64,000 nucleotides of DNA from Candidatus Berkelbacteria bacterium (GTDB taxonomy: Bacteria; Patescibacteriota; UBA1384; JACPKC01): the NCBI GenBank assembly GCA_016187225.1, contig JACPKC010000010.1, forward strand, positions 156,590 to 220,589. Reading direction: 5' to 3'. The number at the start of each line of letters is the position of its first letter. Position 1 is the first letter of the stretch. Positions 4,178-62,460 of the stretch are shown piece after piece. Below the pieces are notes generated by a model. The model had not been told where the DNA came from. It made no database searches and saw nothing but the letters and a program-made list of their open reading frames with translations. The position numbers and the translations under genes are program-made.

Positions 4178-4393
4178 GTTTTTAGTCCTCCATTGCGATG
4201 CGCCTAGTATAGCGCAGGCGCTTTACAATCACCAAATCAAATCGTAGGCGTGTTTTGTTCTAATTCTTCAACCACCTCATCGTCGATAATTTGAGAAAAT
4301 GACTTCATTTGAAAGACTTTCTCTCTCGTCATTGCAAGAGCTAAAACGACGAAGCAATCTGGAAGGTGTATACTTATAAAATTGGAGGTGACA

Positions 4394-4927
4394 ATGTCAC
4401 CCCTTGAACAAGCGAAAATCTCATATCTTATTCTACATCGGAGCCCAGTTTTTGTGCTCCTCGACTTACTTCTGATTGAATGTGTTTATTTTATTTTTAT
4501 TGCTCTTCTGCTTTGGTTCCTACTCGTTCTCTTAAATCAAATTACTCTGTCTCCACTGGGTTTAATCGCAATTTTGTTTGTAAGTTTAGTCCTTAAGGCC
4601 GGAGCAGTTGCGTTGGCTGGTGTCGGTTGGTTGCATGAATACTACGAAATTCGCGTCGCGGAAATCACGCACCATCGAGGTATCTTTCGCAAGTATCATG
4701 AGGTTTTAAGCACCGGCGAGGTGCGTTCAATCACACTGACACAGGATTTTTTGGGTCAAATCTTGCGGTATGGAACACTCACCTTACATAATCCCGCGCT
4801 TGGTCAAGAAATTCGTTTAGCGGGCATTTCAAATCCAAATCGGTGTCAACAACTGCTCGCTCAATTCTTGCCTAAAATTGAACAGCCGCCATCCTTTATT
4901 CAAACTGGGGGGATTGCGGCTTCGTGA
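4394..4927 (+). CDS. Membrane protein with a bacterial PH (bPH_2/YdbS-like) domain
   Basis: Two N-terminal TM helices followed by ...EYYEIRVAEITHHRGIFRKYHEVLSTGEVRSITLTQDFLGQILRYGTLTL, which is characteristic of bPH_2. The ATG at 4394 has a GGAGGTG RBS at spacing 5; the ORF track start is 4382. Confidence 0.55.
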   Translation: MSPLEQAKISYLILHRSPVFVLLDLLLIECVYFIFIALLLWFLLVLLNQITLSPLGLIAILFVSLVLKAGAVALAGVGWLHEYYEIRVAEITHHRGIFRKYHEVLSTGEVRSITLTQDFLGQILRYGTLTLHNPALGQEIRLAGISNPNRCQQLLAQFLPKIEQPPSFIQTGGIAAS

Positions 4928-5008
4928 TCTTATCCCCAATTGATTATGAAATATCCCGAGCAGAGAGTATTATTTAATTAAATATTAGTTCTCCTTAAAG
5001 GAGGGGCA

Positions 5009-5653
5009 ATGGATAAACATCGAAAGGTGCTCTTGCGGAGTATATTGTCGCTGGTGAGCGTGCTTGCCATCGGCGGCGGCGTCACGTATGCATTATTCAC
5101 CTCGAACACGGTGACGGTGGGTCAAAGTCAGATGACAACCGGTGGCGCCGATTTACGAATTTGCAACTCGCTCAATTCAAACCCTGTCGGTTCGAATACC
5201 TGGAAGGATTCAATTTCACCCACGATCGATTTTTCAGCAGTCAATCCGGGCGACACCGACATTGACGTTACGCTTGGCCATGAGATGTATTTAGGCAACG
5301 ACGACGGCACGCTCGAAGATGCGGTTGGTGGTGGGATTTGCAGTGGCTATGATGGTGCTATCACGCCCGGGAATTCAACCGTTCCACTTAACATGATTCC
5401 AACAATTTCGAACATTGTTTGCACCGGTGGTTCTGATCTGGAAAATCAACTTTCATTGCGTTTTAATCTCGGCGGATCTTTTACCGGCTATAAAACTTTG
5501 ACCGGCTGGTCAACAAATACCACAGATTATTTGCCAGATTTTCTGACTGGCGAGGCGAAAATGTTTTCGATGCAAGCAAAGTTGCCTTCGGCCTATGCTC
5601 TGCAGGATGCAACTTGCACTTTTGACACTAACTTCCAAGGCGAGCAGGCTTAA
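5009..5653 (+). CDS. TasA/camelysin-like secreted protein with a SipW-cognate signal peptide
   Basis: N-terminus MDKHRKVLLRSILSLVSVLAIGGGVTYALFTSNTV matches the SipW-cognate signal class (KK..L..AxGGGTxAxFxD/S); RBS AAAGGAGGGG. Confidence 0.6.
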   Translation: MDKHRKVLLRSILSLVSVLAIGGGVTYALFTSNTVTVGQSQMTTGGADLRICNSLNSNPVGSNTWKDSISPTIDFSAVNPGDTDIDVTLGHEMYLGNDDGTLEDAVGGGICSGYDGAITPGNSTVPLNMIPTISNIVCTGGSDLENQLSLRFNLGGSFTGYKTLTGWSTNTTDYLPDFLTGEAKMFSMQAKLPSAYALQDATCTFDTNFQGEQA

Positions 5654-5698
5654 TTCGCATTAAGTTGAAAGCTTCATCCTTGCCTGGCTACGCAGGGA

Positions 5699-6241
5699 GT
5701 GGAGCTTTTGCTCTTGATGCGAATCCGATCCATGCTTCAAAGCTTAAGTTTAGTCCTGCTCATCGGCGTCGGAGCTATTGCCCTATCCGGTCGAACAAAT
5801 CTACTGGGCGATTACCATTTCTATGCAGTTTTGACTGGTAGCATGGAGCCAGCAATCCCAACTAACTCTCTAATCTTTGTGCGCAAGCCCAATTCAAGCG
5901 CCCAAATTGTTCCAGGCGATATTATTACCTTCAAATCCCCTGACGCGTCTGAGCAACTCATTACTCATCGCGTGGCGAGTTTTGAGCAAGGAAGTTTCCG
6001 CACTCAAGGCGACGCGAACCCTAGCCAGGATCCATGGCGCCTCAATTTTAATGACATTCAAGGTCAGTATCAGTTTCACCTTCCCTACCTTGGCGCTGTG
6101 CTAACCTTTCTTCGCACCCCGCTTGGCATCGGTCTTTTGGTCGGAATTCCAGTCTTAATTTTAGTTTTTCATGATTTGTTTTCAATTAATACTGCTCTTT
6201 TCGAGATGAAACTTGAGAGAGAACGGAAAAAAGCGAGTTAA
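5699..6241 (+). CDS. sipW: Signal peptidase I, SipW (archaeal/ER-type S26B)
   Basis: TGSMEPAIPTNSLIFV motif (the SGSMEP catalytic Ser box), an N-terminal TM, and GDIITF...ITHRV. Confidence 0.75.
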   Translation: MELLLLMRIRSMLQSLSLVLLIGVGAIALSGRTNLLGDYHFYAVLTGSMEPAIPTNSLIFVRKPNSSAQIVPGDIITFKSPDASEQLITHRVASFEQGSFRTQGDANPSQDPWRLNFNDIQGQYQFHLPYLGAVLTFLRTPLGIGLLVGIPVLILVFHDLFSINTALFEMKLERERKKAS

Positions 6242-6243
6242 AT

Positions 6244-6954
6244 GTGGCCCGCAAACGCCAAGCGCAGATCGTTGGATTTTTGATTTTCGTTTTTGTTTTT
6301 AGCGTCAGTGAAGCCTTTGCTCTGTTTTTAAGCAATCGCGTGTTTGTTCAGAACATTAAGATTAACGTTGCCGCTTTCCCTTCGATTAAGGTCTTTGCCT
6401 CTAGCGACACCGCATTTGATCAAGACGATGTCGAAGAAAACTTTGGGAATGTCGATGAAGAGGACGTTAGTTCAAAAGACGGTCAAAATCGACGACTGGC
6501 TTTTCGTTTCGATATCCCTACGCTCCCAACTGGCGTCACTCTGGTAGGTTGCTCGCTGAATCTTTTCATGAACGAGGCGCCTTCGTTTGAAAGCCGTTCT
6601 CATGGCGCGTACCGATTTACTCTCCATGAGAACGAGTGGGGCGAGGGTGCGGGCGGGCCGGATGAAGCCGAGGTTGGCGAAAGTAGTTGGCAGTGGTACG
6701 CTCGGCCCGATGAATGGGCTACGCCTGGTGGTGATATTAGCGACTCACCGATTGCAGTGGCGGCTACTGGTCTCGAGGATGAAGTTTGGCAGGCGTGGGA
6801 CGTCACGGCCGACTGCGCTCCTGGCGAAACCCGCTCTTGGCTCATTCGTGATACCAGCGAAGATGCGCCAATGACAAGAGATGCCGAGTATAACTTGCGT
6901 GAAGACGGCTTCGCTACCGCTCCATATCTTTTACTTACCTACCAGGTGCCCTAA
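6244..6954 (+). CDS. Second putative SipW-cognate secreted protein (unknown function)
   Basis: N-terminus MARKRQAQIVGFLIFVFVFSVSEAFALFLSNRV shares the AxF(T/L)SN cleavage-region motif with the upstream TasA-like protein. It is D/E-rich and has no known catalytic motif. Confidence 0.5.
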   Translation: MARKRQAQIVGFLIFVFVFSVSEAFALFLSNRVFVQNIKINVAAFPSIKVFASSDTAFDQDDVEENFGNVDEEDVSSKDGQNRRLAFRFDIPTLPTGVTLVGCSLNLFMNEAPSFESRSHGAYRFTLHENEWGEGAGGPDEAEVGESSWQWYARPDEWATPGGDISDSPIAVAATGLEDEVWQAWDVTADCAPGETRSWLIRDTSEDAPMTRDAEYNLREDGFATAPYLLLTYQVP

Positions 6955-10883: not shown

Positions 10884-12308
10884 ATGCATATTTTTGAGAT
10901 TGAACAGGCAATTCTGGCTAATCAGAAAGTTGTTCGAAAGCATCTTCTATACTGCTGGGAAGATGTTAATGAGACCCTCGACCTTTGTTACGCTCTCGGG
11001 CGCATCTTCTATCGCGGCCTCGATCAGCTCAAGAGATCCGAAAAACGCAATTTTCAGCGTTGTCTTAACGCTATTCGGAAAGCCACGGAGCGGATCGATT
11101 CTGATAAGATGATCGCGATTGCTAACGCGCATAGAGCCTACACCGTTAGGGTCGGCATGAACTTTGCGACCATTTTTTTAGGGTCTGATGCGAATGACTT
11201 CGAGCGATCGGAGAAGATCGTCAGCTTGCTTCATCAGGCAAGGATCAGGACCTACCCTGATGAACTCTCGCTGACAGAACAATACAATGAATTTGCATCT
11301 ATCTTGTCTCTTATTGGCACGTTGATCCATGGCGCCTCGCGAACATGGACAAACTTCTTGCGCTCAGTTGCAAGCGGGTCTCAAACGGCGGGTGCCATTT
11401 TCGATCACATAGTCTTTTTCTATGCTTCGGTTAGGGCAAACGTGAACCTTGTTCACTTGTCTGAATGGCCTTTTCAAACAGCGACTAACATAGAAGAGAC
11501 AATCTTGGTCGCGATCGGCGGTGAGCATGACCCAGTCTTTCTGCCTGTGCCAGATGAGATTATTGATGCAATCAACGGTCGCATCCACGCATTCAATGCG
11601 TGGATTGACAGGCAAAACATTCTCACCCGAGAGTTAGTTGCTTGGTTCCAGACTAAGCGCGACGATTTTCATTCCAAGGAGGAGCAGATGTGGCAGGAGA
11701 TCGTTATGCAACCCAAATATGGCCTGCGACCAGCCGGTCTCGATAAGCTCCGCGTCGATCTAGCAGATAGTTGTGAAACTTATGTACAACTAATTCCGGT
11801 CGGTGATTTTCCTCTGACTCATGTCAAGCTCTGGATGAGATACCGTTACCTTAGGTATTGGTATACGGCGTCCATTATCCTCGATCCAAATAATTGGCAG
11901 GAAGTGGTGTGTTCTGATTGTTCTTGCACACGGGAGGGGGTGCAGGAGATGGATCGGGTGCACAGATTTGTCTGCCTCTACTGTCTGTGGTGGATAGTCA
12001 CAGGCCAGGGTGTGAAGGCGTCAACGTATCATGAAAAAGGAGGTAAGAAGTCGAACGGATTTGGCGTCCCCGCGTCCAAAACACCGATTCGAGCGCATTT
12101 TCGTCGACTGCCTCTTGGCAGGAATCCATCTGAAGCAGCTCAACTTCGTGCGATTGATACGTTAGATGTTTTGCCGCCAATCGGTACGACCTTTGTGCGC
12201 TCTCATCTGCGCAATAATACGCCAACCGAGCAGGAGATTCGCGACTTCGAAAAGATCGAGCCTTTGCCCAATTTTATTTTTTCGTTCAGTAAGTTTGGTT
12301 TCGCTTGA
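10884..12308 (+). CDS. Hypothetical 474-aa protein, Cys-rich (CSDCSCT...CLYC), no recognised domain
   Basis: Long ORF with an RBS (GAAGGAGAGG); ends at a bidirectional terminator. Confidence 0.6.
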   Translation: MHIFEIEQAILANQKVVRKHLLYCWEDVNETLDLCYALGRIFYRGLDQLKRSEKRNFQRCLNAIRKATERIDSDKMIAIANAHRAYTVRVGMNFATIFLGSDANDFERSEKIVSLLHQARIRTYPDELSLTEQYNEFASILSLIGTLIHGASRTWTNFLRSVASGSQTAGAIFDHIVFFYASVRANVNLVHLSEWPFQTATNIEETILVAIGGEHDPVFLPVPDEIIDAINGRIHAFNAWIDRQNILTRELVAWFQTKRDDFHSKEEQMWQEIVMQPKYGLRPAGLDKLRVDLADSCETYVQLIPVGDFPLTHVKLWMRYRYLRYWYTASIILDPNNWQEVVCSDCSCTREGVQEMDRVHRFVCLYCLWWIVTGQGVKASTYHEKGGKKSNGFGVPASKTPIRAHFRRLPLGRNPSEAAQLRAIDTLDVLPPIGTTFVRSHLRNNTPTEQEIRDFEKIEPLPNFIFSFSKFGFA

Positions 12309-13548: not shown

Positions 13549-14634
13549 TTACTTCCTGGCTGTTCGCAAATTAAACCAAGCGAAACGAAGCAGGGTGCCA
13601 AAGCCTACACACCAGGCGCCAAAAATTAAAATCCAACCTAAGAATGGAATGAGCTTAAGAATTACCAGCACAATCGACCCAACGAGAAATGCATTCACAA
13701 GTGTGAGTTTCTGCTTGAAGAGAAGGTCGCCGACCCAAAGATTGGCCACAGCGCCGGCTAGAATCGCAAGCGCTCCAACCAAGAAAATTTCAAGAAATGC
13801 GAGTGGTAAAGTTATATAGAACACAAAGAGGAGAATTAAGATAAAAGGCGCCGCTCCAAGCGAGACTAATCCGACGAGGAGTGCATTGAGCGGTTCCTTA
13901 TAAGCTTGAGCGCGCAGGACCTCAACGGTTTTTGGAGCGAGTAGATAGATTAACGCGCCGGTCATTAGCAAACCGAGGATAGTCGCCACTTCGGCAAATA
14001 AACTACCCAGACCAAAGCCAAACTGTTGGGCTTCATCAGTATCTGTTTGACGTTTCAACTCAACCCCACCAATCACCATTGCACCCTCCGGTTTAACGAA
14101 TGGTTTCGTGGTCGTGCCTGTCAGTTTGCCTTCAATTTTAGCTGTATCAGATAATGTAACCGACTCGGTCCCAACATTCACATTGCCATCCACGGCGCCG
14201 GCCAGATGCAAGGTGCCTGCATAAACAGTAACGTCGCCAGCCACGCGCCCGCGCACTTCAACGTTGCCGGCAAATACCAAGAGATCACCGTCAATAGTTG
14301 CATCCGATCTTAGAGTTACGGTACTGCCGGCAACTAAAACATCGCCCTGGACTCGGCCATTGATTTTTATACTCGAACCAGCGGCAAACACATTGCCACC
14401 GACACTATCATCAATTGTGACTGTATTGCCAGCCGCTACAAGGTCGCGAGCCACTCGCCCTCGAATATCAATATCGGCGCCGGCCGTAATTAAGGTATCG
14501 TTAATTATCTGACCACTTTCTACTACGACATTGCCCGAGCTTTCGGGCTGTTGGAATTCGAGAGCTTGAACATCGCTCAATCCCAGTGTAAGAACCGATA
14601 GAATCGCGAGCGTAGAGATGCTGTGCATTTTCAT
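13549..14634 (-). CDS. Bactofilin-like (polymer-forming, beta-helical repeat) protein with a signal peptide and a C-terminal multi-TM domain
   Basis: Repeated DIxIxGxVxGDVxxAGxTV units followed by four hydrophobic helices. Confidence 0.5.
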   Translation of the reverse strand: MKMHSISTLAILSVLTLGLSDVQALEFQQPESSGNVVVESGQIINDTLITAGADIDIRGRVARDLVAAGNTVTIDDSVGGNVFAAGSSIKINGRVQGDVLVAGSTVTLRSDATIDGDLLVFAGNVEVRGRVAGDVTVYAGTLHLAGAVDGNVNVGTESVTLSDTAKIEGKLTGTTTKPFVKPEGAMVIGGVELKRQTDTDEAQQFGFGLGSLFAEVATILGLLMTGALIYLLAPKTVEVLRAQAYKEPLNALLVGLVSLGAAPFILILLFVFYITLPLAFLEIFLVGALAILAGAVANLWVGDLLFKQKLTLVNAFLVGSIVLVILKLIPFLGWILIFGAWCVGFGTLLRFAWFNLRTARK

Positions 14635-24353: not shown

Positions 24354-25847
24354 TCACGAAATTCCGAAGCGGCTTTTAATACTGGTACGAGCCTTTTGCG
24401 TTTTTGCAAAACGGAGCCAATCGCGTTTCGGCCCTTGCGGTTTTTTGGTCACTAAAATTTCTACAATGTCGCCATTTTTAAGTTCAGTATCAAGCGGTTT
24501 GAGACGGTCGTTGATTTTGGCGCCTGTACAGTTATCGCCGATGTCGGAGTGAATTGCGTAAGCAAAATCGATTGGCGTACTTTGGACTGGCAAAGTAATC
24601 ACATCGCCAAGAGGAGTAAAAACAAAGATTTGATCACGAAAAAATTCCAGTCGGAGCATGGCCTGAAGCTCCTTGGGGTCCTTCAAGGTTTGTTGCCATT
24701 TATGCAAATCTGCCAGCCAGCTGGGTCGTGGTAAAACATCGTCTTTTTTTGATTTGTGCTCGGTGTAGTGCCAGTGGGCGGCAATCCCCCACTCTGCTTG
24801 CTCGTGCATTAATGGGGTGCGAATCTGAATCTCGGTAATCTCGCCGTCGACGCCAAAAACCGTACTGTGTAATGATTGATAACCATTCGGTTTTGGAGTT
24901 GCAATATAATCTTTAATCCGACCAAGAAGAGGATTCCAGCGGCTGTGGATCAGTCCGAGAACTTGGTAACAATCAGCAGGTGTTGGCACAATAATGCGAA
25001 TTGCGATTAAATCATAGATCTTGCTTAAGTCGCCTTGGTAACGTTGGAGTTTTTGCCACAGGCTGTACTCATGCTTAACGCGACCGTGAATATCAAGCAT
25101 CTTGATGTGCTCCGATTCCAGATATTGCTTCAAAGTGCGCTGAAAACGCACGATGTACTGATCGCGCTCGCGGATTCGTTCGCCTAGTTGATCGCGCAGA
25201 AATTTGTGTTCTTTAGGATAAACATAAGGAAAAGCTAAATCCTCCAGTCGACCTTTGATGTCGCCCATTCCGAGGCGGTAGGCGAGCGGCGCATAAATTT
25301 CAAGTGTTTCTTGAGCGATTCGGGCTCGTTTATCGGGGCGGACAGCGTGAAGTGTTTCCATATTGTGAAGCCGATCGGCAAGTTTAATAAGAATCACTCG
25401 GATGTCATCAGTCATTGCAAGTAACATCTTGCGCAATGATTCCACTTGGCGCTCAAACGCTACTCGCTCCTCCTCTCGGCGCAAAAGAAAAGCCGGCAGA
25501 AAACGGCCGGTTTTTTTAAGACGAACGCGGGCGAGTTTTGTAACCCCGCTTACGAGTTTGGCGATCCCAGGTCCAAATCGGCGTTCGATTTGTTCGGCGG
25601 CGATGCTCGTGTCTTCGAGAACATCATGCAAAAGCGCCGCGGCTATAGTTTCAACATCGAGTTCAAGTTTAGCCAAAAAAAGCGCGATTCTGACTGGATG
25701 AGTTAAATACGTTTCACCACTTTCTCGCTTGATGCCCCGATGCGCCTCCTCGGCATATTGGTATGCTCGTTCAACTAAGGCCCGATCTTCTTCATTCATG
25801 TAAGATCGAATTGTCTCCTTAAGTTGTAAGTACTCTTTGTCGTGCAT
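24354..25847 (-). CDS. rel: Bifunctional (p)ppGpp synthetase/hydrolase Rel, short form (HD, RelA/SpoT synthetase, TGS; no ACT)
   Basis: HD motif LLHDVLEDT, synthetase domain, and TGS (GDIVEILV); 497 aa. Confidence 0.85.
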   Translation of the reverse strand: MHDKEYLQLKETIRSYMNEEDRALVERAYQYAEEAHRGIKRESGETYLTHPVRIALFLAKLELDVETIAAALLHDVLEDTSIAAEQIERRFGPGIAKLVSGVTKLARVRLKKTGRFLPAFLLRREEERVAFERQVESLRKMLLAMTDDIRVILIKLADRLHNMETLHAVRPDKRARIAQETLEIYAPLAYRLGMGDIKGRLEDLAFPYVYPKEHKFLRDQLGERIRERDQYIVRFQRTLKQYLESEHIKMLDIHGRVKHEYSLWQKLQRYQGDLSKIYDLIAIRIIVPTPADCYQVLGLIHSRWNPLLGRIKDYIATPKPNGYQSLHSTVFGVDGEITEIQIRTPLMHEQAEWGIAAHWHYTEHKSKKDDVLPRPSWLADLHKWQQTLKDPKELQAMLRLEFFRDQIFVFTPLGDVITLPVQSTPIDFAYAIHSDIGDNCTGAKINDRLKPLDTELKNGDIVEILVTKKPQGPKRDWLRFAKTQKARTSIKSRFGIS

Positions 25848-28350
25848 TAATCGCTAACGTTTTACCTTTAAGATCGATCTGAAATTCATGGCGGGTTGGG
25901 AAGCGCAAACTTGCATCGGCCACGAGCGTCGCAACGTGAGTTTCGATTAGGCGCCGAATAGCCCGCGCTCCTTCTTTGTTTGCGACAATTTGTGCGATTA
26001 GCCAATTTTCTGCTTCGGGAGTAAGCATTATTTCAAGGCTAGTTGAGCGCGCATAAGTTTTAAGACGATCAAGTTCAAGCTGAACAATTGCGCGTAAAGT
26101 TTCTTCTGCAAGTGGCTGAAAAATTAAGATATTATCCAACCGATTCAAAAACTCGGGCCGAAAATGCTCTTTAAGTTGATCTTGAAGCGGTGTTTGCCAC
26201 CACGGTGTTTGTGAGCTGACCCGAAAACCTATTCCGCCTGCACGTTTCCACAGCTCGCCTCCAATGTTTGAGGTTAGAATGATAAGAGTTTCCCGAAAGC
26301 TAACGGCGCGACCTTTGGAATCAGTAAGTATGCCATCTTCCATCATTTGCAGGAGCAAGTGAAATACATCTGGATGCGCTTTTTCAATTTCATCAAAAAG
26401 CACCAAACGATGCGGTCGTCGCCGGACACTTTCAAGTAGTTTCGCTGGCTCGTCATGGCCAACATAACCTGGTGGTGCGCCTAAGAGTCGAGCCACCTGA
26501 TGACGCTCCATGAATTCGCTCATATCAAGTTTAATGAGCGCATCTTCGGTGCCAAAAATTTCCTCTGCTAAAACCCGAGCAGTTTCGGTTTTACCCACTC
26601 CACTTGGACCAACAAACAAAAAGGCGCCTATTGGACGATTTGGCGATTTTAATCCGCTTTTGGCGCGTCGAATTGTTTGAGCTAGAGTTTTCAAGGATTC
26701 AGTTTGGCCAAGAATTTTAGTCTGAAGAGATTCTTCAAGTTTTAAGAGATTGCGACGATCCGCGTTTCCCAAGCGTTCAATGGGAATTTTTGTCCAGGTG
26801 CTTAAGACATGGCGAATATGGTCGAGAGTTAGCGATTTAGCTCTAGTGGGTGGCGTTTTGAGTTGGGCTGGATCAGCTTCTTTTTGCAAAAGTCGGAGTT
26901 TAATCTCTTGGTCACGCAGATATGCCGCCCGCTCAATGTGACCGGTTTTGAGTTCATACTCTTTTTGATTTTTGAGCCTTTTGAGCTCGCGTTCGATGTC
27001 GTGTGCAGTAGCGCGCCGGCGCGGCGCGGGTGTGTTCTTGGCTCGCATCGCGGCGGCGGCTTCATCAATGAGGTCGATCGCTTTGTCCGGAAAATTCCGA
27101 TCATGAATATAACGATGCGCCAGTGTCACTGTTTCTTCAATCACTTCAGATGGAATACCAATGCCGTGGAAGGCCTCGTATTTTGGCGTGAGACCTTTGA
27201 GAATTTCAACTGTTTCCAACTGCGTGGGTTCACTGACGACAATTGGCTGAAAGCGGCGTTCAAGCGCCGCATCCTTTTCAATATATTTTTGATATTCAGT
27301 ACTCGTGGTGGCGCCAATGAGTCGCAATTGACCTTTGGCAAGCAAAGGCTTTAAGATATTTGCCGCATCCAGAGCGCCCTCGGCGCCACCGGCGCCGGTC
27401 ATGGTATGCAGTTCATCGATGAAGAGCAGAATGTCGCCTTGAGTTTGCACTTCTTCCACAAGATGGCGAAGGCGATCTTCAAACTGGCCGCGATACATTG
27501 TGCCGGCAACCAGGATACTCAATTCCAAACTGACGATTCGGCTGTCAGCTAGATATTCTGGTACGGCGCCACCGACAATTCGTTGCGCCAGTCCTTCAAT
27601 TATGGCTGTTTTCCCCACTCCCGGCTCGCCAATTAGAACGGGATTGTTTTTAGTTTTTCGCCCTAAAATATGCATCAGCCGCTCCAGTTCGGCCTCTCGA
27701 CCAATTAAAGGATCGAGCAGTTTCTCATGCGCTAGCGCTGTAAGGTCAAGCGTGAACTCATCTAGAAATGGTGTTTCCGTTTGTTCGTCGACCTCTTCGG
27801 GTAGATTAAGTTGGGGGCGATGCGTCGATGGGATAGGCTCCTGACTAAGTTGACCGACCACGCCGAGAAGTTCAATTTCTTGGTGAACCATCGTATTCGG
27901 TGATGATTTTTGTTCTGCAAAAAAATGTTCAAGTGATTTTCGAATTGTTTTTGGTTCGATGCCAAGTTGGAGCACGATTTCGTGAGCGCGAGAATTGGTA
28001 TCCGAAATCAGTGCCCAAAGCAGATGTTCTGGTTCAATAAATTGCATGCCAAGTGTTGTTGCCTGAAATGCCGCTCGCTCCAAGACTGCCTTGGCTTCTA
28101 TTTTCATACCCATGCCGCGTTCGGAAGAAATCTCTTTTAATGAGAGCGCCAGACGAATTTGGTCAGGTGTAATTGGCACCTTTCGGAGAAGATTGTAAGC
28201 ATAGGTATCGGGCGTGATGCTGATGGCGAGAAGTAGATGCTCTGAACCAAGCACATTCCCCATCGCCTCCGCATAGCGTTGCGAAGCGAGCAAGACTATC
28301 TTTGCCGACGGAGAGAATTTTCCAAAACTTGCAGATTGCGCGTCATTCAT
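25819..28350 (-). CDS. clpC: Class I Clp/Hsp100 ATPase, ClpC-like (two AAA+ modules)
   Basis: Walker A motifs [10 protein letters not shown] and GPSGVGKTE. The N-domain FGKFSPSAKIVL aligns with the ClpC N-terminus. The true start is uncertain, between 28350 and 28392. Confidence 0.8.
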   Translation of the reverse strand: MNDAQSASFGKFSPSAKIVLLASQRYAEAMGNVLGSEHLLLAISITPDTYAYNLLRKVPITPDQIRLALSLKEISSERGMGMKIEAKAVLERAAFQATTLGMQFIEPEHLLWALISDTNSRAHEIVLQLGIEPKTIRKSLEHFFAEQKSSPNTMVHQEIELLGVVGQLSQEPIPSTHRPQLNLPEEVDEQTETPFLDEFTLDLTALAHEKLLDPLIGREAELERLMHILGRKTKNNPVLIGEPGVGKTAIIEGLAQRIVGGAVPEYLADSRIVSLELSILVAGTMYRGQFEDRLRHLVEEVQTQGDILLFIDELHTMTGAGGAEGALDAANILKPLLAKGQLRLIGATTSTEYQKYIEKDAALERRFQPIVVSEPTQLETVEILKGLTPKYEAFHGIGIPSEVIEETVTLAHRYIHDRNFPDKAIDLIDEAAAAMRAKNTPAPRRRATAHDIERELKRLKNQKEYELKTGHIERAAYLRDQEIKLRLLQKEADPAQLKTPPTRAKSLTLDHIRHVLSTWTKIPIERLGNADRRNLLKLEESLQTKILGQTESLKTLAQTIRRAKSGLKSPNRPIGAFLFVGPSGVGKTETARVLAEEIFGTEDALIKLDMSEFMERHQVARLLGAPPGYVGHDEPAKLLESVRRRPHRLVLFDEIEKAHPDVFHLLLQMMEDGILTDSKGRAVSFRETLIILTSNIGGELWKRAGGIGFRVSSQTPWWQTPLQDQLKEHFRPEFLNRLDNILIFQPLAEETLRAIVQLELDRLKTYARSTSLEIMLTPEAENWLIAQIVANKEGARAIRRLIETHVATLVADASLRFPTRHEFQIDLKGKTLAINARQRVLTT

Positions 28351-29479
28351 TCTGTTGATTTTTTCCTTGACCCTCATCTTTTGTCGACTCATCCTCGGTT
28401 GGAATTTCTTTTATTTCTTTATCTTCGTCTGTATTTTGATCTTTAACTATATCTAACTCCCAACCAGTTAGTTTACTTGCAAGGCGAACGTTTTGTCCAC
28501 CCTTTCCAATTGCCAGTGAGACTTGATCCGCTGGCACTCGAATGGTGGCTTTTTTGAGAGCTTCATCAAGAATAATTTCGTCAACCTTGGCCGGCGAAAG
28601 CGCATTGGCAATAAGTTTTTTTGGATCGGCATCCCAGAGAATGATGTCTATTTTTTCATTACCCAAATCAGAAAGAACCGCTTGGACACGAATCCCACGT
28701 TGCCCAACACATGAGCCAACCGGGTCAAGACCTTCTTGGTGAGCGGCAACAGCAATTTTAGTGCGTGAGCCAGCCTCGCGCGCGATTGTTTCGATTGTTA
28801 CAGTTCCCGATTGGATTTCTGGCACTTCTTGGGTAAAGAAACCGCGAATAAGATCAGGATGCGAGCGCGAGACCATAACTTTTGGGCCGCGGTTGGTTTC
28901 CTCGACGCCCTTAACGTAGATCTTGAGACGTTGGCCAATATAGTAACGTTCCTCATGAATTTGGTCGGGAAGCATCATCACGGCATTCATGCGCCCGATA
29001 TTAATAACAATGTCTCGTCCATCGATTTGTTGAACCGTGCCGCTGACAATTTGTCCTTCTTTACCTTTGAATTCAGAATAGAGAAGGGATCGTTCAGCCT
29101 CCGCTATCCGTTGAATGATTACCTGTTTGGCTGTTTGAGCCGCAATCCGTCCAAAATCGGCTTGGTGTGGAAGGGGCATACTTACTTCTCCGCCTATATC
29201 TGCCTTGTCGTCGAGTTTTTGAGCTTCAGTTAGAGTAATCTGCCGTTCCGGTTCCTCAATTTCCGCATCATCGGCAACAATCTCGAAAACTTGTCGCATT
29301 TGAGTTTTGCCGATGTCATTTGGATTTAAGGTTGCGCGAATCACTTGGCCGGTTCGTCCATAGTCTTTTCGATACGCCGCCGCCAGTGCCGCCTCGACAG
29401 TTTGAACGACAGTTTCAATAGGAAGGCCGCGTTCCTCGGCAAGTTCCTGAAGGGCAACTAAAAAAGGTGAATCCTTCAT
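28343..29479 (-). CDS. nusA: Transcription termination/antitermination factor NusA
   Basis: N-terminal domain, S1 domain and two KH domains (GSCVGQRG, AIGKGGQNVRLA). Confidence 0.9.
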   Translation of the reverse strand: MKDSPFLVALQELAEERGLPIETVVQTVEAALAAAYRKDYGRTGQVIRATLNPNDIGKTQMRQVFEIVADDAEIEEPERQITLTEAQKLDDKADIGGEVSMPLPHQADFGRIAAQTAKQVIIQRIAEAERSLLYSEFKGKEGQIVSGTVQQIDGRDIVINIGRMNAVMMLPDQIHEERYYIGQRLKIYVKGVEETNRGPKVMVSRSHPDLIRGFFTQEVPEIQSGTVTIETIAREAGSRTKIAVAAHQEGLDPVGSCVGQRGIRVQAVLSDLGNEKIDIILWDADPKKLIANALSPAKVDEIILDEALKKATIRVPADQVSLAIGKGGQNVRLASKLTGWELDIVKDQNTDEDKEIKEIPTEDESTKDEGQGKNQQNE

Positions 29480-46656: not shown

Positions 46657-46735
46657 AATAAAGGAAGTTCGAAGTTTGTGTAGGCTCGAGGAAGTTGCTT
46701 CCTCGGCCTCACAAATATCGAAGCGGGGAGAATAT

Positions 46736-48856
46736 ATGCACAAATCCAGATTTAAGAAATTCCGGCGAGTCTTTGCAATTTCTATGGTCGGACTCATTTT
46801 GAGTTTTTCTTCAATCGCGCCCGCCCTTGCGGTTGGGCCAATCGGACCAGTTGGTCCACAAGGCCCAGTGGGGCCCCAGGGTCAGGTTGGTCCACAAACC
46901 CCAGTTGGCCCCCAAGGCTCTATCGGTCCTCAACCAGTCACAGAACAAGGTCCAGCTTCAACATCAACAGCCGAACCATCAGTGATTTCAAATGAACCAC
47001 CAGTTGCACAACTCACTAATAACTCGAACGTAATAGAGCCAGGCGTTCAAACTTCCACTCCGCTTGAACCAGTCGCACCAATCGAGTCGACCAGCGCTTC
47101 AGCCGACCCGGCGATTGAAGGCACGCAAGTCAGCGCCGGCGAACTTACGAATGAGCAAACTGGCTCGAACTCGGAGAATTCAAATGCCGTCGGTGTCACA
47201 AATTCGGCAATGGTTGAAACGACAAATTCGGCCACAGTCGGCAATAATCTTAATTTAGATGCGGCGACCGGCGATAACGAAGTTACGAGCAATACCATGG
47301 TCGGAAGTTTCACGACTGGTGATATTCAAGGTTCGATTAACATCATCAACGCTACGAATTCAGAATTTGCCCCTGGCAGTACCGTGGGTGTTGGCGAGAT
47401 CACAACAAATGCAAGTGGTGATGTTTTCTTGCTTGATGGAGTGGATCGGTTATATTTACCAAGCAACAATGAAACTGGAGTGAATTCAGCTAATACAAAC
47501 GTTATTAATGACACGAACGTGGTACGTATAATTACAGATAATAATGCCGACATTGATAATGTTATCGATATTAGTGCCGATACCGGCAATAATACGCTCA
47601 CCAGCAACACAGTGCTCGGCGATATTGCGACCGGCACGATCGACCTTTCATTGAACATCATCAATTTACTTAACCTACTTATGCCGGACACGCTTTTTTC
47701 GCTCGACCTTTGGTCAATTTTTGGCGACCTTGCGAGTGATATTATTCTCCCCATGGTCAATGAACTCACCGGCGTAAATTCGGAAAATACAAATTCTGCT
47801 ATCCAAAATACAACTGTCGATGTTACCCTGGCGAATAACGCTCAAATCGATAATATCTTCGACATTCAAACCGAGACAGGCAATAACGCACTCGCCAGCA
47901 ATAGTACTGTCGGAAACATCGAAACCGGCGGCACGCGGATCGAGGGTGGAGTTACAAATATTGCTAACAGCGCCAATCCGACACTTTATCTCTTTAATGT
48001 TTTGGGTGACTGGACTGGGAGCGCTCTCGGATTGCCAGGCGGTAATTTTATTGTGAATGAACTTTCCAGCCTACTAACGGGTCCTAATTCGCTCAATGAG
48101 AATACTGCCCAGCAAACAAATGATGTTTTAGTTGACGTAACCAATACCGCCAACGTTTCCAACCAGCTTTCTTTGAACGCAAATACCGGCGCTAACACGG
48201 TTGAGCGAAATTCAAAAGTTGGCAATATTAAAACCGGCGATATTAATGTCATGGCGAATGTGGTCAATTTCCTTAATTCGTTTGGGAGTGATCTTAAAAA
48301 GTTTTCTCTCAAGGTTGTGAATATTTTTGGAAACTGGAATGGCACCGCGAAATCAACGCCCGATCCAGAAATTCAAACTGCAAGCGCTCTCGCATCGCCA
48401 GAGAACATCGATAATCAGTCATCGCAAAATTCAAACACTGCCGATGTGTGGGTTACACAACCAGTCGCCGCAACTTCAATAGAGATTTCACAAGCATCAT
48501 CAAATTCTACCGGTGAAAACAATCTATCGGAAACTGTGATAGCTAGTGTTGCCGAAGATCAGTCGCCTGAAATGCCAAGTTCGCCAGTTCAAGTTGCAAG
48601 CGCGAATGAAAATACAAGACTTGCGTTTGTTGAGCAAAAACAGAATTCTAATGACGAATCGAGATTATCTGAAGATGCTACACCCGAAGAAAATCTCACT
48701 AAAATTGCTTCAGCTCACATTGAACAACCTGTCTTGGTTGGGGCTGAAAAGAATAAAATAAATTGGCAACTGATACTAGTCTTAAGTCTACTTAGCTTCT
48801 TCGCTTTAATCTGGGGTTCTCTTGAGATTGCCGCCGTTAAATCAATTCGTCGTTAA
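46736..48856 (+). CDS. Large surface protein 3: signal peptide, collagen-like GXY tract, at least four units of about 70 aa, and a C-terminal TM anchor with a KSIRR tail
   Basis: Start at MHKSRFKK with RBS GGGGAGA. GPIGPVGPQGPVGPQGQVGPQ...GPQGSIGPQ. Units TG(S/V/P)NSxNxN...TGxNxxxxNTxxGxxxTGD. The C-terminus is WQLILVLSLLSFFALIWGSL followed by EIAAVKSIRR. Confidence 0.7.
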   Translation: MHKSRFKKFRRVFAISMVGLILSFSSIAPALAVGPIGPVGPQGPVGPQGQVGPQTPVGPQGSIGPQPVTEQGPASTSTAEPSVISNEPPVAQLTNNSNVIEPGVQTSTPLEPVAPIESTSASADPAIEGTQVSAGELTNEQTGSNSENSNAVGVTNSAMVETTNSATVGNNLNLDAATGDNEVTSNTMVGSFTTGDIQGSINIINATNSEFAPGSTVGVGEITTNASGDVFLLDGVDRLYLPSNNETGVNSANTNVINDTNVVRIITDNNADIDNVIDISADTGNNTLTSNTVLGDIATGTIDLSLNIINLLNLLMPDTLFSLDLWSIFGDLASDIILPMVNELTGVNSENTNSAIQNTTVDVTLANNAQIDNIFDIQTETGNNALASNSTVGNIETGGTRIEGGVTNIANSANPTLYLFNVLGDWTGSALGLPGGNFIVNELSSLLTGPNSLNENTAQQTNDVLVDVTNTANVSNQLSLNANTGANTVERNSKVGNIKTGDINVMANVVNFLNSFGSDLKKFSLKVVNIFGNWNGTAKSTPDPEIQTASALASPENIDNQSSQNSNTADVWVTQPVAATSIEISQASSNSTGENNLSETVIASVAEDQSPEMPSSPVQVASANENTRLAFVEQKQNSNDESRLSEDATPEENLTKIASAHIEQPVLVGAEKNKINWQLILVLSLLSFFALIWGSLEIAAVKSIRR
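46835..46933 (+). repeat. Collagen-like Gly-X-Y triplet tract (about 10 triplets, one interruption) inside protein 3
   Basis: In-frame translation of GGNCCN-rich DNA gives GPI GPV GPQ GPV GPQ GQV GPQ (TPV) GPQ GSI GPQ. Confidence 0.7.
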
Positions 48857-59766: not shown

Positions 59767-62460
59767 ATGGATCTGAATAAATTTACGGTTAAAACCCAAG
59801 AAGCCTTGTTTCAGGCGCAAAACGTCGCTCTTGAACGTCAACAACAACAGGTTGATGTTGCGCATGTAATGTTAGCGTTAATCGAGCAAACAGATGGCAT
59901 TGTCCGCCCGTTACTCCAAAAAATTAACGTAAGTGAGCAACTTTTGCGCTCGCGGATTAATCAATTGATTGAACTTATGCCGCGCACAATTTCGCCTTCA
60001 GGTCAGTTTGGTCAGGTATATATTGCCGAATCTTTGCGCCGAGTTTTGGTTCAAGCCGGGAAAGAAGCCGAACAGCTCAAGGATGAGTTTATTAGCACTG
60101 AACACGTGCTTTTAGCAATTCTTGAAATCAACACTCCAGTTAAGCAGGTTTTGAACGCATTGGGCGTTCATCGTGAGGAAGCGCTTAAGGCGCTTATGGA
60201 TGTGCGCGGCAGTCAGCGCGTGACCGACCAAACACCTGAAAACAAATATCAAGTTCTTGAAAAATATACGATTGATCTAACGGCCGAGGCTCGCAACGGT
60301 AAACTCGACCCTGTTGTTGGGCGCGATGAAGAGATTCGGCGTGTTATGCAAGTTTTGTCGCGCCGCACTAAAAATAATCCTGTTCTCATCGGCGAACCGG
60401 GAGTTGGCAAGACCGCAGTTGTCGAAGGTCTAGCCCAACGAATTGTCGCCGGCGATGTCCCGGAATCGATCGCTAATAAACGTCTACTTTCACTCGATCT
60501 GGGCTCCATTATTGCCGGAACAAAATTTCGAGGTGAATTTGAAGATCGTCTCAAGGCGTTGCTTAAAGAGATTGATCAGTCGGCAGGCCAAATTATTCTC
60601 TTTATCGATGAACTGCACACTTTAGTTGGCGCGGGGGCAACAGATGGGGCGATGGATGCGGCCAATCTCCTTAAACCCGCGCTTGCTCGCGGCAAATTGC
60701 ATGCGATTGGCGCCACGACACTTAAAGAATACCAACAACATATTGAAAAGGATGCGGCGCTTGAACGGCGCTTTCAGCCAGTGATGGTGAAAGAGCCAAC
60801 GATTGAAGACACGATCGCAATTTTACGGGGAATTAAAGAAAAGTATGAAGTTCATCATGGCGTGAAGATCACCGACTCTGCCATTGTCGCGGCGGCTAAT
60901 CTTTCCACGCGCTATATCACTGATCGTTTTTTGCCCGATAAGGCAATCGATTTAATTGATGAAGCAACTTCTTCGCTTCGGATGGAAATCGATTCTATGC
61001 CGGTTGAGCTGGATTCACTGAAACGCAAGATTATTCAGTTAGAAATCGAGCGTGAAGCCTTAAAGCGGGAGACGGATAAAGAAAGCAAGGATCGTCTTAA
61101 AGAACTAATGGAAGAACTAGCAGGTTTACGTGAAGATGCTGAACAGCTTGAATTGCGCTGGAAGAATGAAAAAGAGATTATCACCAAGCTTCGTGATCTT
61201 TCGATGAAGCTGGATCAAGCGCGTGTCGATGCCGAGCAGGCCGAGCGTCAGGGCGAACTTGAAAAAGTCGCTATGATTCGATATCAGCGTGTGCCTGAAT
61301 TGCAAAGAGAGCGCAAAACTTTAACTAAGCAATTAAGTGAAGTCCAAAAGGACAGTAAGATTTTGAAAGAAGAAGTGACTGAAGAGGATATTGCGCAAGT
61401 GGTTGCGCATTGGACAGGCATTCCGGTAACCAAAATGCTTGAAAGCGAGGCGAAAAAACTTGCCCACATGGAGACCGAGATTAAAGCTCGAATTGTCGGC
61501 CAAGAAAACGCTATCACAGCTGTTGCAAACGCAATTCGTCGATCTCGGGCAGGCATCTCTGAAGAGTCGCGCCCAATCGGATCCTTTATGTTCTTAGGCC
61601 CAACAGGCGTGGGCAAAACCGAACTGGCGCGCGCCTTGGCTGAATTTATGTTTAATGATTCAAGTGCGATGATTCGGATCGATATGAGTGAGTATATGGA
61701 AAAACATGCGTCGAGCAAGTTGATTGGCGCTCCGCCTGGTTATGTCGGTTACGAGGAAGCCGGCCAACTCACTGAACAAATTCGTCGGCGCCCCTACTCC
61801 GTTGTGCTTTTTGATGAAATTGAAAAAGCTCACCCAGAAATTTTCAATATGCTTTTGCAAGTTCTCGACGACGGTCGCCTAACTGATTCTAAGGGTCGAG
61901 TTGTGAATTTCAAAAATGCCATCATCATTTTAACAAGTAATTTAGGTAGTCAGATTATCCAGGATTACACCGCTCAACGTCAAAGTCACGCTATTGGTTA
62001 TCATGTCGCCGAGCAAGCCACTGATGAAAAACAGGAAATGAAAGATAAAGTTCTCGAAGAAGTACAGCGCTTCTTTAAGCCAGAATTTTTGAATCGCTTG
62101 GATGAGATTCTAATTTTTGATGCTCTTTCCGAAAAACAAATTCGCCAGATCATTGATCTTCAGTTGGCCCATGTTATTGAGAGAGTAGCGAAACAGCGTG
62201 GTCTAAAACTCACGATCAACACAGAAGTTAAACAAGAACTTGCCCGACGTGGGTACGACCCTGTTTATGGCGCTCGTCCGCTCAAACGTGTCATTCAACA
62301 TGAAATTTTAGATCCCCTAGCCTTGATGGTCCTCGAGCATCAATTTCCCGAAGATACAAATCTTGATGTTGTGATTAAAGATGGTAAGATAACTATTCTT
62401 CCTCAACTTGAACAAATGCCTCCCAAAGAAATTAGTTCAGCGAAAACCGTTCCTGTATAA
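59767..62460 (+). CDS. clpB: Chaperone ClpB (Hsp100 disaggregase with a long M-domain coiled coil)
   Basis: 897 aa with two AAA+ modules ([19 protein letters not shown]) and a long coiled-coil middle domain. Confidence 0.9.

Follow-up and report, generated by a model that had tools for sequence, protein, structure and literature searches.

Fibres that assemble by donor-strand exchange from TasA-superfamily subunits, together with an archaeal-type signal peptidase, are by now recognised in Firmicutes, Actinobacteria, Chloroflexi and many archaea. In the tapA-sipW-tasA system of Bacillus subtilis, mature TasA comprises residues 28-261 (PMC10151520) and its N-terminal segment, residues 28-38, is the fibre donor strand (PMC9674648); TapA has an N-terminus that resembles this strand and has been predicted to enter TasA, and fibre nucleation requires no other portion of TapA (PMC9674648; PMC10151520). 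According to a 2026 preprint, loci of the superfamily commonly combine a dedicated type I signal peptidase (SPase I) with tip or minor components of varying structure (bioRxiv 10.64898/2026.01.04.697558), and a 2022 Pfam survey noted TasA homologues (PF12389) in Patescibacteria (PMC9245690). Our literature search for SipW or TasA in the Candidate Phyla Radiation (CPR) returned only that one-line remark on Pfam distribution (PMC9245690), and found no description of the CPR subfamily or of the CBM96-bearing accessory considered below. Here we describe three adjacent genes, A, B and C, in a window of 64,000 nucleotides (the whole stretch that was analysed; assembly GCA_016187225.1, contig JACPKC010000010.1, positions 156,590 to 220,589) from a metagenome-assembled genome (MAG) of Candidatus Berkelbacteria, a CPR (Patescibacteria) bacterium. 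We consider it very probable that they belong to this general class, in which a TasA-superfamily subunit comes with an archaeal-type peptidase of its own and a further, accessory substrate, and we propose with moderate confidence that A builds a donor-strand-exchange fibre in which C serves as a strand-donating nucleator, anchor or tip.

The membership of A in the superfamily was brought out by an exhaustive HMMER search with its family profile against 1.84 billion representative proteins, which gave 177 matches at E <= 1e-3. About 41 of these, at E <= 1e-17, share the ...YA-LFTSN N-terminus of A (taxonomy checked for a few loci only); the remaining tail consists of proteins of 175-200 aa that align over the N-terminal as well as the C-terminal half and bear the canonical camelysin/TasA N-terminus ...GGATYAxFSDTxTVxGNTFSTGxADLxI, which grades visibly into the ...GGGVTYALFTSNxVTVSQTQVSTGSADLRI of A. 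Comparison by hhalign of the A-family profile with a profile of 86 of these relatives gave a probability of 99.94% (E 1.1e-36) over 172 columns, taking in the C-terminal FDxxFxGxQ strand and marking a Cys-containing insertion of ~25 residues in A (roughly 97-122). Among the relatives, 36 of the 86 match PF12389. Furthermore, their profile matched TasA (5of1, 5e-5; 8aur, 7e-5) and Pyrodictium AbpX (9sj2, 5e-5; 9rhp, 6e-4) in the PDB, the next match lying at E 0.63, and a profile into which the A family had been merged found, at E <= 1 among 177,635 PDB sequences, AbpX and TasA only, with the TasA alignment covering residues 4-203. Because the HMMER continuum, the profile-profile comparison and the PDB profile matches all point the same way, A is, on these profiles, a divergent TasA-superfamily subfamily, so far met in CPR/Patescibacteria records only and beyond the reach of curated models. 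A direct family assignment was dropped, as the homology is visible only via exhaustive HMMER and profile-profile comparison; a word-indexed database search with A retrieved only 16 proteins, the few source-named ones being from Berkelbacteria or Patescibacteria.

The N-terminus of A reads ...GGGVTYALFTSNTV. Across its homologues the pattern RSxLSLxxxLAIGGGVTYALFTSNxV is almost invariant, with T26, Y27, A28, L29, F30 and S32 unchanged in 16 of 16 sequences, and four Cys are conserved. By analogy with the signal/mature junction of TasA, A is probably cut at the A28/L29 junction, leaving an acidic mature protein (isoelectric point, pI, 4.05). The AlphaFold2 model, built on an alignment of homologues, is confidently all-beta (predicted local distance difference test, pLDDT, 82.5; predicted template modelling score, pTM, 0.75), with the signal helix and first mature residues undocked and of low confidence (donor-strand block pLDDT 41-60). 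Searched against the PDB with Foldseek, this model matched nothing at E <= 1e-3, with self-complemented FimA and AbpA near the top; its fold matches include many chaperone-usher pilins, FimA and FmlH among the best. The undocked N-terminal strand of the monomer model, taken together with the conservation of its sequence, may be an indirect sign of polymerisation.

A preliminary description of this DNA had placed an archaeal/ER-type signal peptidase with a TGSMEP motif between two secreted proteins, and this is borne out. Three open reading frames (ORFs) on the plus strand lie within 5009-6954 (214, 180 and 236 aa), A and C being identical to the NCBI proteins HYW32_03580 and HYW32_03590, and B scores 84.3 bits on the archaeal/ER-type SPase I model TIGR02228, above its cutoff of 51.85. 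The bacterial LepB-type model TIGR02227 fits far less well (29.5 bits, below its cutoff of 47). B carries Ser/His(Asp) catalytic residues in place of a Ser/Lys dyad: it contains VLTGSMEPAIP, and Ser48 of GSMEP, His90 of THR, Asp105 of GDANP and D111 (GDANPxxD) are invariant across seven orthologues. Its two hydrophobic segments provide one N-terminal and one C-terminal transmembrane (TM) helix, and no paralogue of B was found in the 64-kb window. On the SipW equivalog model NF046067 it reaches 95.4 bits, below the cutoff of 190; judged by its sequence, B is SipW-like and not a SipW orthologue or equivalog. By analogy with the described systems, B would process the signal peptides of both A and C.

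What relates C to A is its N-terminus, which reads ...SEAFALFLSNRV and in which A24, A26, F28, N31 and V33 are invariant among five orthologues; the sequence suggests a cut at the A26/L27 junction. When A and C are set in register at these sites (TYA/LF and AFA/LF, the slash marking the cut), their first 17 mature residues follow a common pattern, x-F-x-S-N-x-V-x-h-x-x-x-x-h-x-T-G. A loose regular expression for this region, [TSAG][YFW]A[LYFWHAS][FLW].[SDA], matches 2 of the 276 window ORFs of >=50 aa, A and C, both flanking the peptidase, and since no other ORF among the 276 matches, the pairing of the motif around the peptidase is not chance. A position-specific scoring matrix (PSSM) derived from 43 A-family mature N-termini, with its register fixed to the residues after the cut, was positive for seven of eight C orthologues (30.8, 27.9, 20.9, 18.6, 15.4, 7.0, 3.8 and -5.7 bits, the 3.8 belonging to the window's C); the maximum over a background of 69,188 17-mers was 15.5 bits, and the window C value was reached by two of them. 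The best non-A matches of hidden Markov models (HMMs) of A are C proteins, with a short HMM of the A mature N-terminus alone finding C proteins only at E 0.04-0.14 and missing the window's C. In the C orthologues, a Pro-rich linker directly follows the strand. The likeness of the two mature N-termini goes well past what chance would give, and it is the relation that has been reported for TapA and TasA.

The remainder of C is of another kind. The preliminary description had taken it for an acidic 236-aa protein with no characterised domain, suggesting a lineage-specific extracellular fibre or accessory protein. Its length and acidity hold (mature C: pI 4.1, 38 D+E against 14 K+R). A domain is nevertheless present, a CBM96/DNRLRE beta-sandwich, mostly joined in the orthologues by a lamin-tail domain (LTD): C passes the Pfam model CBM96 with 27.7 bits (cutoff 26), reaches 26.1 bits on the NCBIfam model DNRLRE (below the cutoff of 34, which three of four orthologues pass), and has an AlphaFold2 model (pLDDT 71; residues 24-43 disordered at pLDDT < 50) that matches two solved CBM96/DNRLRE modules. 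No TapA family or structure appeared among its matches, and C is at most a functional analogue of TapA. Without a TasA-like globular domain it is no second fibre protein, and the reading that fits it best is that of an accessory subunit. Elsewhere, orthologues of C run to ~410 aa and consist of a signal peptide, the conserved N-terminal strand, the Pro-rich linker, CBM96 and an LTD; short forms without an LTD also occur in two further loci (L010, L011), such that two accessory architectures coexist in the clade. We considered whether the window's C is a truncation artefact and rejected this, given those short forms and with no LTD elsewhere in the window; the short C is a natural variant.

The ligand of known CBM96 modules does not carry over to C. 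The alginate-binding module TM6-N4 binds alginate through Lys residues (PMC9971899), and we compared its uronate groove residues (K10, K22, K25, K27, K31, R36 and Y159) with C: the N-terminal region aligned to the groove, in a weak alignment (E 0.014), is acidic (DQDDVEENFGNVDEEDVSSKDGQNRR) and retains only the Arg of NRR. As acidic residues appear to take the place of the basic groove, the idea of carrying an alginate or chondroitin specificity over from the known modules to C was rejected.

The three genes travel together. The preliminary description had called for a search for the triad in related genomes, and it is indeed kept in at least seven Patescibacteria loci besides the window, in differing neighbourhoods, with A and C adjoining the archaeal-type peptidase on either side (the loci with all three genes are L001, L003, L004, L005, L006, L010, L011 and L014). 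Upstream neighbours vary by locus, including FtsA/FtsZ, FtsH, CitMHS and others, and when 185,579 species-representative genomes were scanned for the pattern, six loci only came up, all in Patescibacteria. Two more distant loci of the A family depart from the common layout. In L012 (5711-6736; GCA_034680565.1, JAXOUH010002800.1) the SipW-like peptidase lies within a 341-aa in-frame fusion ORF that continues with a third TM segment, a strand that begins like a cleavage site (PSAFA/QFTSNSVFLASTSISVGT), a linker rich in Pro and Ser and, last, a small Asn-rich domain, which would make the enzyme one polypeptide with its second substrate; the fusion could be real or an assembly or frameshift artefact, and its sequence points to strand plus linker as the conserved element of the second substrate, with variable cargo. 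In L013 (5707-6300) the peptidase homologue beside the A-family gene has lost both the Ser (GSMEP to NDDMGKN) and the His (THR to VRR) and may, on its sequence, be a pseudo-peptidase; no C-like gene follows it. Separately, two A gene copies (L008 and L010) lie on separate contigs of one Patescibacteria MAG (JAYRIO01, isolate SZ_szas25bin.55), and some genomes therefore have paralogous fibre loci.

In the mechanism that we propose, A and C would be exported by the Sec pathway with an unusual conserved signal region (A, ...GGGVTYA/LFTSN; C, ...SEAFA/LFLSN), and the membrane-bound archaeal/ER-type Ser/His peptidase B would cut both, exposing a near-identical N-terminal beta-strand on each. Mature A, a predicted disulfide-containing jelly-roll/Ig-like beta-sandwich, would then form a head-to-tail polymer in which the N-terminal strand of one subunit enters the sheet of the next, as in TasA, AbpA and AbpX. 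Because C has the same strand and no TasA-like body, it would donate to a single A subunit and thereby sit at one fibre end, acting in a TapA-like manner as nucleator, anchor or tip, and its CBM96/DNRLRE lectin-like domain (with the LTD in most relatives) may tie the fibre to a glycan or surface. In general terms this mechanism is the known TasA/TapA one, here joined by an accessory specific to the lineage.

Compared with B. subtilis, the locus shares a set of three genes, a dedicated archaeal/ER-type peptidase, two substrates with one unusual signal, a major subunit in the TasA/camelysin superfamily (by remote homology) and a minor protein whose mature N-terminus copies that of the major subunit, for which TapA sets the precedent (PMC9674648, PMC10151520). 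The Bacillus biofilm-fibre architecture proposed in the preliminary description thus stands as far as a TasA/SipW-like module goes. It does not extend to the gene order, which is reversed here (major subunit, peptidase, accessory), nor to the individual proteins: B falls well short of the SipW equivalog model (95 bits, where 190 are needed), A is unrecognised by PF12389 or the TasA equivalog and differs from TasA in the ~25-residue Cys-containing insertion and four conserved Cys, and C lacks a TapA domain, its body being a CBM96/DNRLRE domain to which an LTD may or may not be added. The organism, moreover, is an ultra-small CPR bacterium and not a Firmicute. Archaeal relatives include the AbpA bundling pili (7ueg) with AbpB, and AbpX (9sj2) with an adjacent TIGR02228 peptidase, as well as Sulfolobus threads (7pnb), Tafi pili (9p0a) and cannulae (9h8b); these filaments are mostly from thermophiles or halophiles, share only ~10% sequence identity with A and have no described CBM96 accessory, and the AbpX-locus peptidase reportedly crosses the membrane with ten TM helices, as against two hydrophobic segments in B. 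Solved CBM96/DNRLRE modules include the alginate-binding TM6-N4 of Dp0100 (7vbo) and a chondroitin-sulfate-binding module (8wab); unlike these, C is attached to no enzyme, shows a strongly acidic character at the place of the essential Lys of the alginate module, and carries ahead of its domain a signal of SipW type and a segment resembling a donor strand. The FimH/FimA chaperone-usher pili offer a further likeness in their beta-sandwich subunit, N-terminal donor strand and single terminal lectin-type subunit, but here there is no chaperone, usher or outer membrane, the families are evolutionarily unrelated, and the pilin domain of FimH accepts a strand where C is predicted to donate one.

Several observations weigh against a TasA-type fibre capped by C. 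Both N-termini quoted as SipW-cognate in the preliminary description are present, yet the curated model for this signal, TIGR04088, scores A at 16.6 bits (E 0.0064), below its cutoff of 19, and gives no match for C or its orthologues; five of six A orthologues are likewise sub-threshold (13.6-18.3 bits) and one has no match, with the two distant relatives of A that were tested, P0078 (22.1 bits) and P0079 (24.4 bits), passing. Pfam returns no match for A at E <= 1, neither A nor C directly matches the TasA/camelysin model PF12389 (Peptidase_M73), and the A-family profile alone finds no match among PDB sequences. The window's C is the second-lowest in the PSSM strand test (3.8 bits) and has neither the Pro-rich linker nor the LTD that most orthologues possess (L001, L003, L004, L005, L006). 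With Asp/Glu in place of the Lys-rich glycan groove of the alginate module, a lectin function of C is tentative at most. Finally, the likeness of A and C could partly reflect recognition by the peptidase on the P' side and not a common structural role.

This last point leads to an alternative that we judge unlikely though worth taking seriously, namely that the locus is a dedicated-peptidase secretion cassette and nothing more, in which A, a beta-sandwich matrix or cell-surface protein, and C, a glycan-binding protein, are unrelated monomers whose N-termini are alike for P'-side recognition and no fibre is formed. The A-C identity is strongest over the five residues that open the mature proteins, LF(T/L)SN, right beside the cleavage site, and A resembles filament subunits only modestly in its fold, both as such a cassette would have it. 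However, the similarity extends to position 17 (V7, h9, h14, T16, G17) and is significant at fixed register, the strand of the C orthologues runs straight into a Pro-rich linker, as would suit a tether, and A is homologous along its length, C-terminal strand included, to TasA-superfamily proteins, whose solved members (TasA, AbpA, AbpX, threads, cannulae and Tafi) are all donor-strand filaments. We find it very improbable that C is instead the functional core, devoted to polysaccharide capture or scavenging, with A as a camelysin-like surface protease or an accessory to C. No catalytic domain is fused to or beside C in any examined locus, and the sequence of A has no metalloprotease motif, even if the A-related Pfam family bears the name 'camelysin metallo-endopeptidase'; camelysin-family proteins are nowadays generally considered fibre subunits. 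CBM96/DNRLRE modules are admittedly best known from alginate and chondroitin lyases (PMC9971899), but the basic groove of the alginate module is acidic in C, and TasA, the solved relative of A, is a donor-strand fibre and not an enzyme (PMC9674648). The chance that the genes are merely juxtaposed, or are ORF-calling artefacts, is negligible: only the sub-threshold scores on curated models speak for it, and it is refuted by synteny, all three ORFs having conserved homologues and the triad recurring in at least seven other loci of varied neighbourhood, with the motif confined to two of the 276 window ORFs.

The locus adds to the superfamily a CPR-restricted subfamily missed by curated models and a hitherto unreported putative accessory subunit that joins a lectin-type CBM96/DNRLRE domain to a copied donor strand. 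CPR bacteria are uncultured and probably dependent on host cells, and type IV pili are the presumed means of their attachment to the host. It is conceivable, although we hold it to be a rather improbable extension, that CPR cells build a second, simpler appendage beside type IV pili: a chaperone-free TasA-type fibre with interchangeable lectin-like end cargo. The end cargo (CBM96, CBM96 plus LTD, or other small domains) would then be held only via the copied donor strand, C would be a distal adhesin docking the ultra-small cell on host or biofilm glycans, and the strand-plus-linker 'plug' would allow modular loading of any domain onto the fibre. On that view, the fusion in L012 and the catalytically dead peptidase in L013 hint at fast evolution of the module. 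As a compact three-gene system, the locus could be reconstituted in vitro, and a defined CPR surface appendage would be a useful handle on attachment. Coordinates of the features are collected below.

Table. Features of the three-gene locus, in window positions.
Feature	Position	Strand	Description
Shine-Dalgarno AAAGGAGGGG, strong	4997-5006	+	upstream of gene A ATG; read directly from sequence
Gene A (HYW32_03580)	5009-5653	+	214 aa; divergent TasA/camelysin-superfamily protein, predicted major fibre subunit
A signal peptide, predicted	5009-5092	+	residues 1-28, ends GGGVTYA, probable cut before LFTSN; SipW-cognate type
A donor strand, predicted (LFTSNTVTVGQSQMTTG)	5093-5143	+	first 17 mature residues; conserved across A family
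Gene B	5699-6241	+	180 aa as listed; archaeal/ER-type signal peptidase I
Catalytic Ser48	5840-5842	+	gene B
Catalytic His90	5966-5968	+	gene B
Catalytic Asp105	6011-6013	+	gene B
Gene C (HYW32_03590)	6244-6954	+	236 aa; signal peptide, A-like N-terminal strand and CBM96/DNRLRE beta-sandwich; putative secreted accessory
C signal peptide, predicted	6244-6321	+	residues 1-26, ends SEAFA, probable cut before LFLSN
C N-terminal strand (LFLSNRVFVQNIKINVA)	6322-6372	+	first 17 mature residues; mimics A strand, analogous to TapA N-terminus
CBM96/DNRLRE beta-sandwich of C	6382-6945	+	about residues 47-234

The starts and spacing of the genes add some detail. The GTG start of C lies 2 nt past the stop of B, and this spacing suggests translational coupling of the two. 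For B itself, ATG 5717 (MRIRSML...) is more likely the true start than the listed GTG 5699, because GGGAG, the likely Shine-Dalgarno of B (5699-5719), overlaps that GTG; the later start also agrees with the N-termini of orthologues. Promoter and terminator scans around the triad were uninformative: a weak sigma-70-like match at 4946-4973 is no evidence of a promoter, scan sites being no commoner than in shuffled sequence. The triad lies in housekeeping surroundings, flanked by ftsA/ftsZ/nrdR and, at its opposite end, by ybeY/yqeY/rpsU. Immediately upstream, at 4382-4927 (+), is a bPH_2 membrane protein (bacterial PH domain, 31.4 bits). We weighed whether it is a fourth part of the module and decided against this; the other loci lack it and have different genes upstream.

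Beyond the triad, a few other genes of the window deserve mention. A 361-aa protein at 13549-14634 (-) combines an N-terminal signal-like segment with a bactofilin repeat region (PF04519, 42 bits) and a C-terminal block of several hydrophobic helices, and so places the bactofilin domain, unusually, in a membrane-embedded setting. Two large proteins, of 474 aa at 10884-12308 (+) and 726 aa at 46676-48856 (+), have no Pfam match at E <= 1e-3. Lastly, two paralogous ClpB/ClpC-type double-AAA+ ATPases are encoded at 25819-28392 (-) and 59767-62460 (+), less than 35 kb apart in a small CPR genome.

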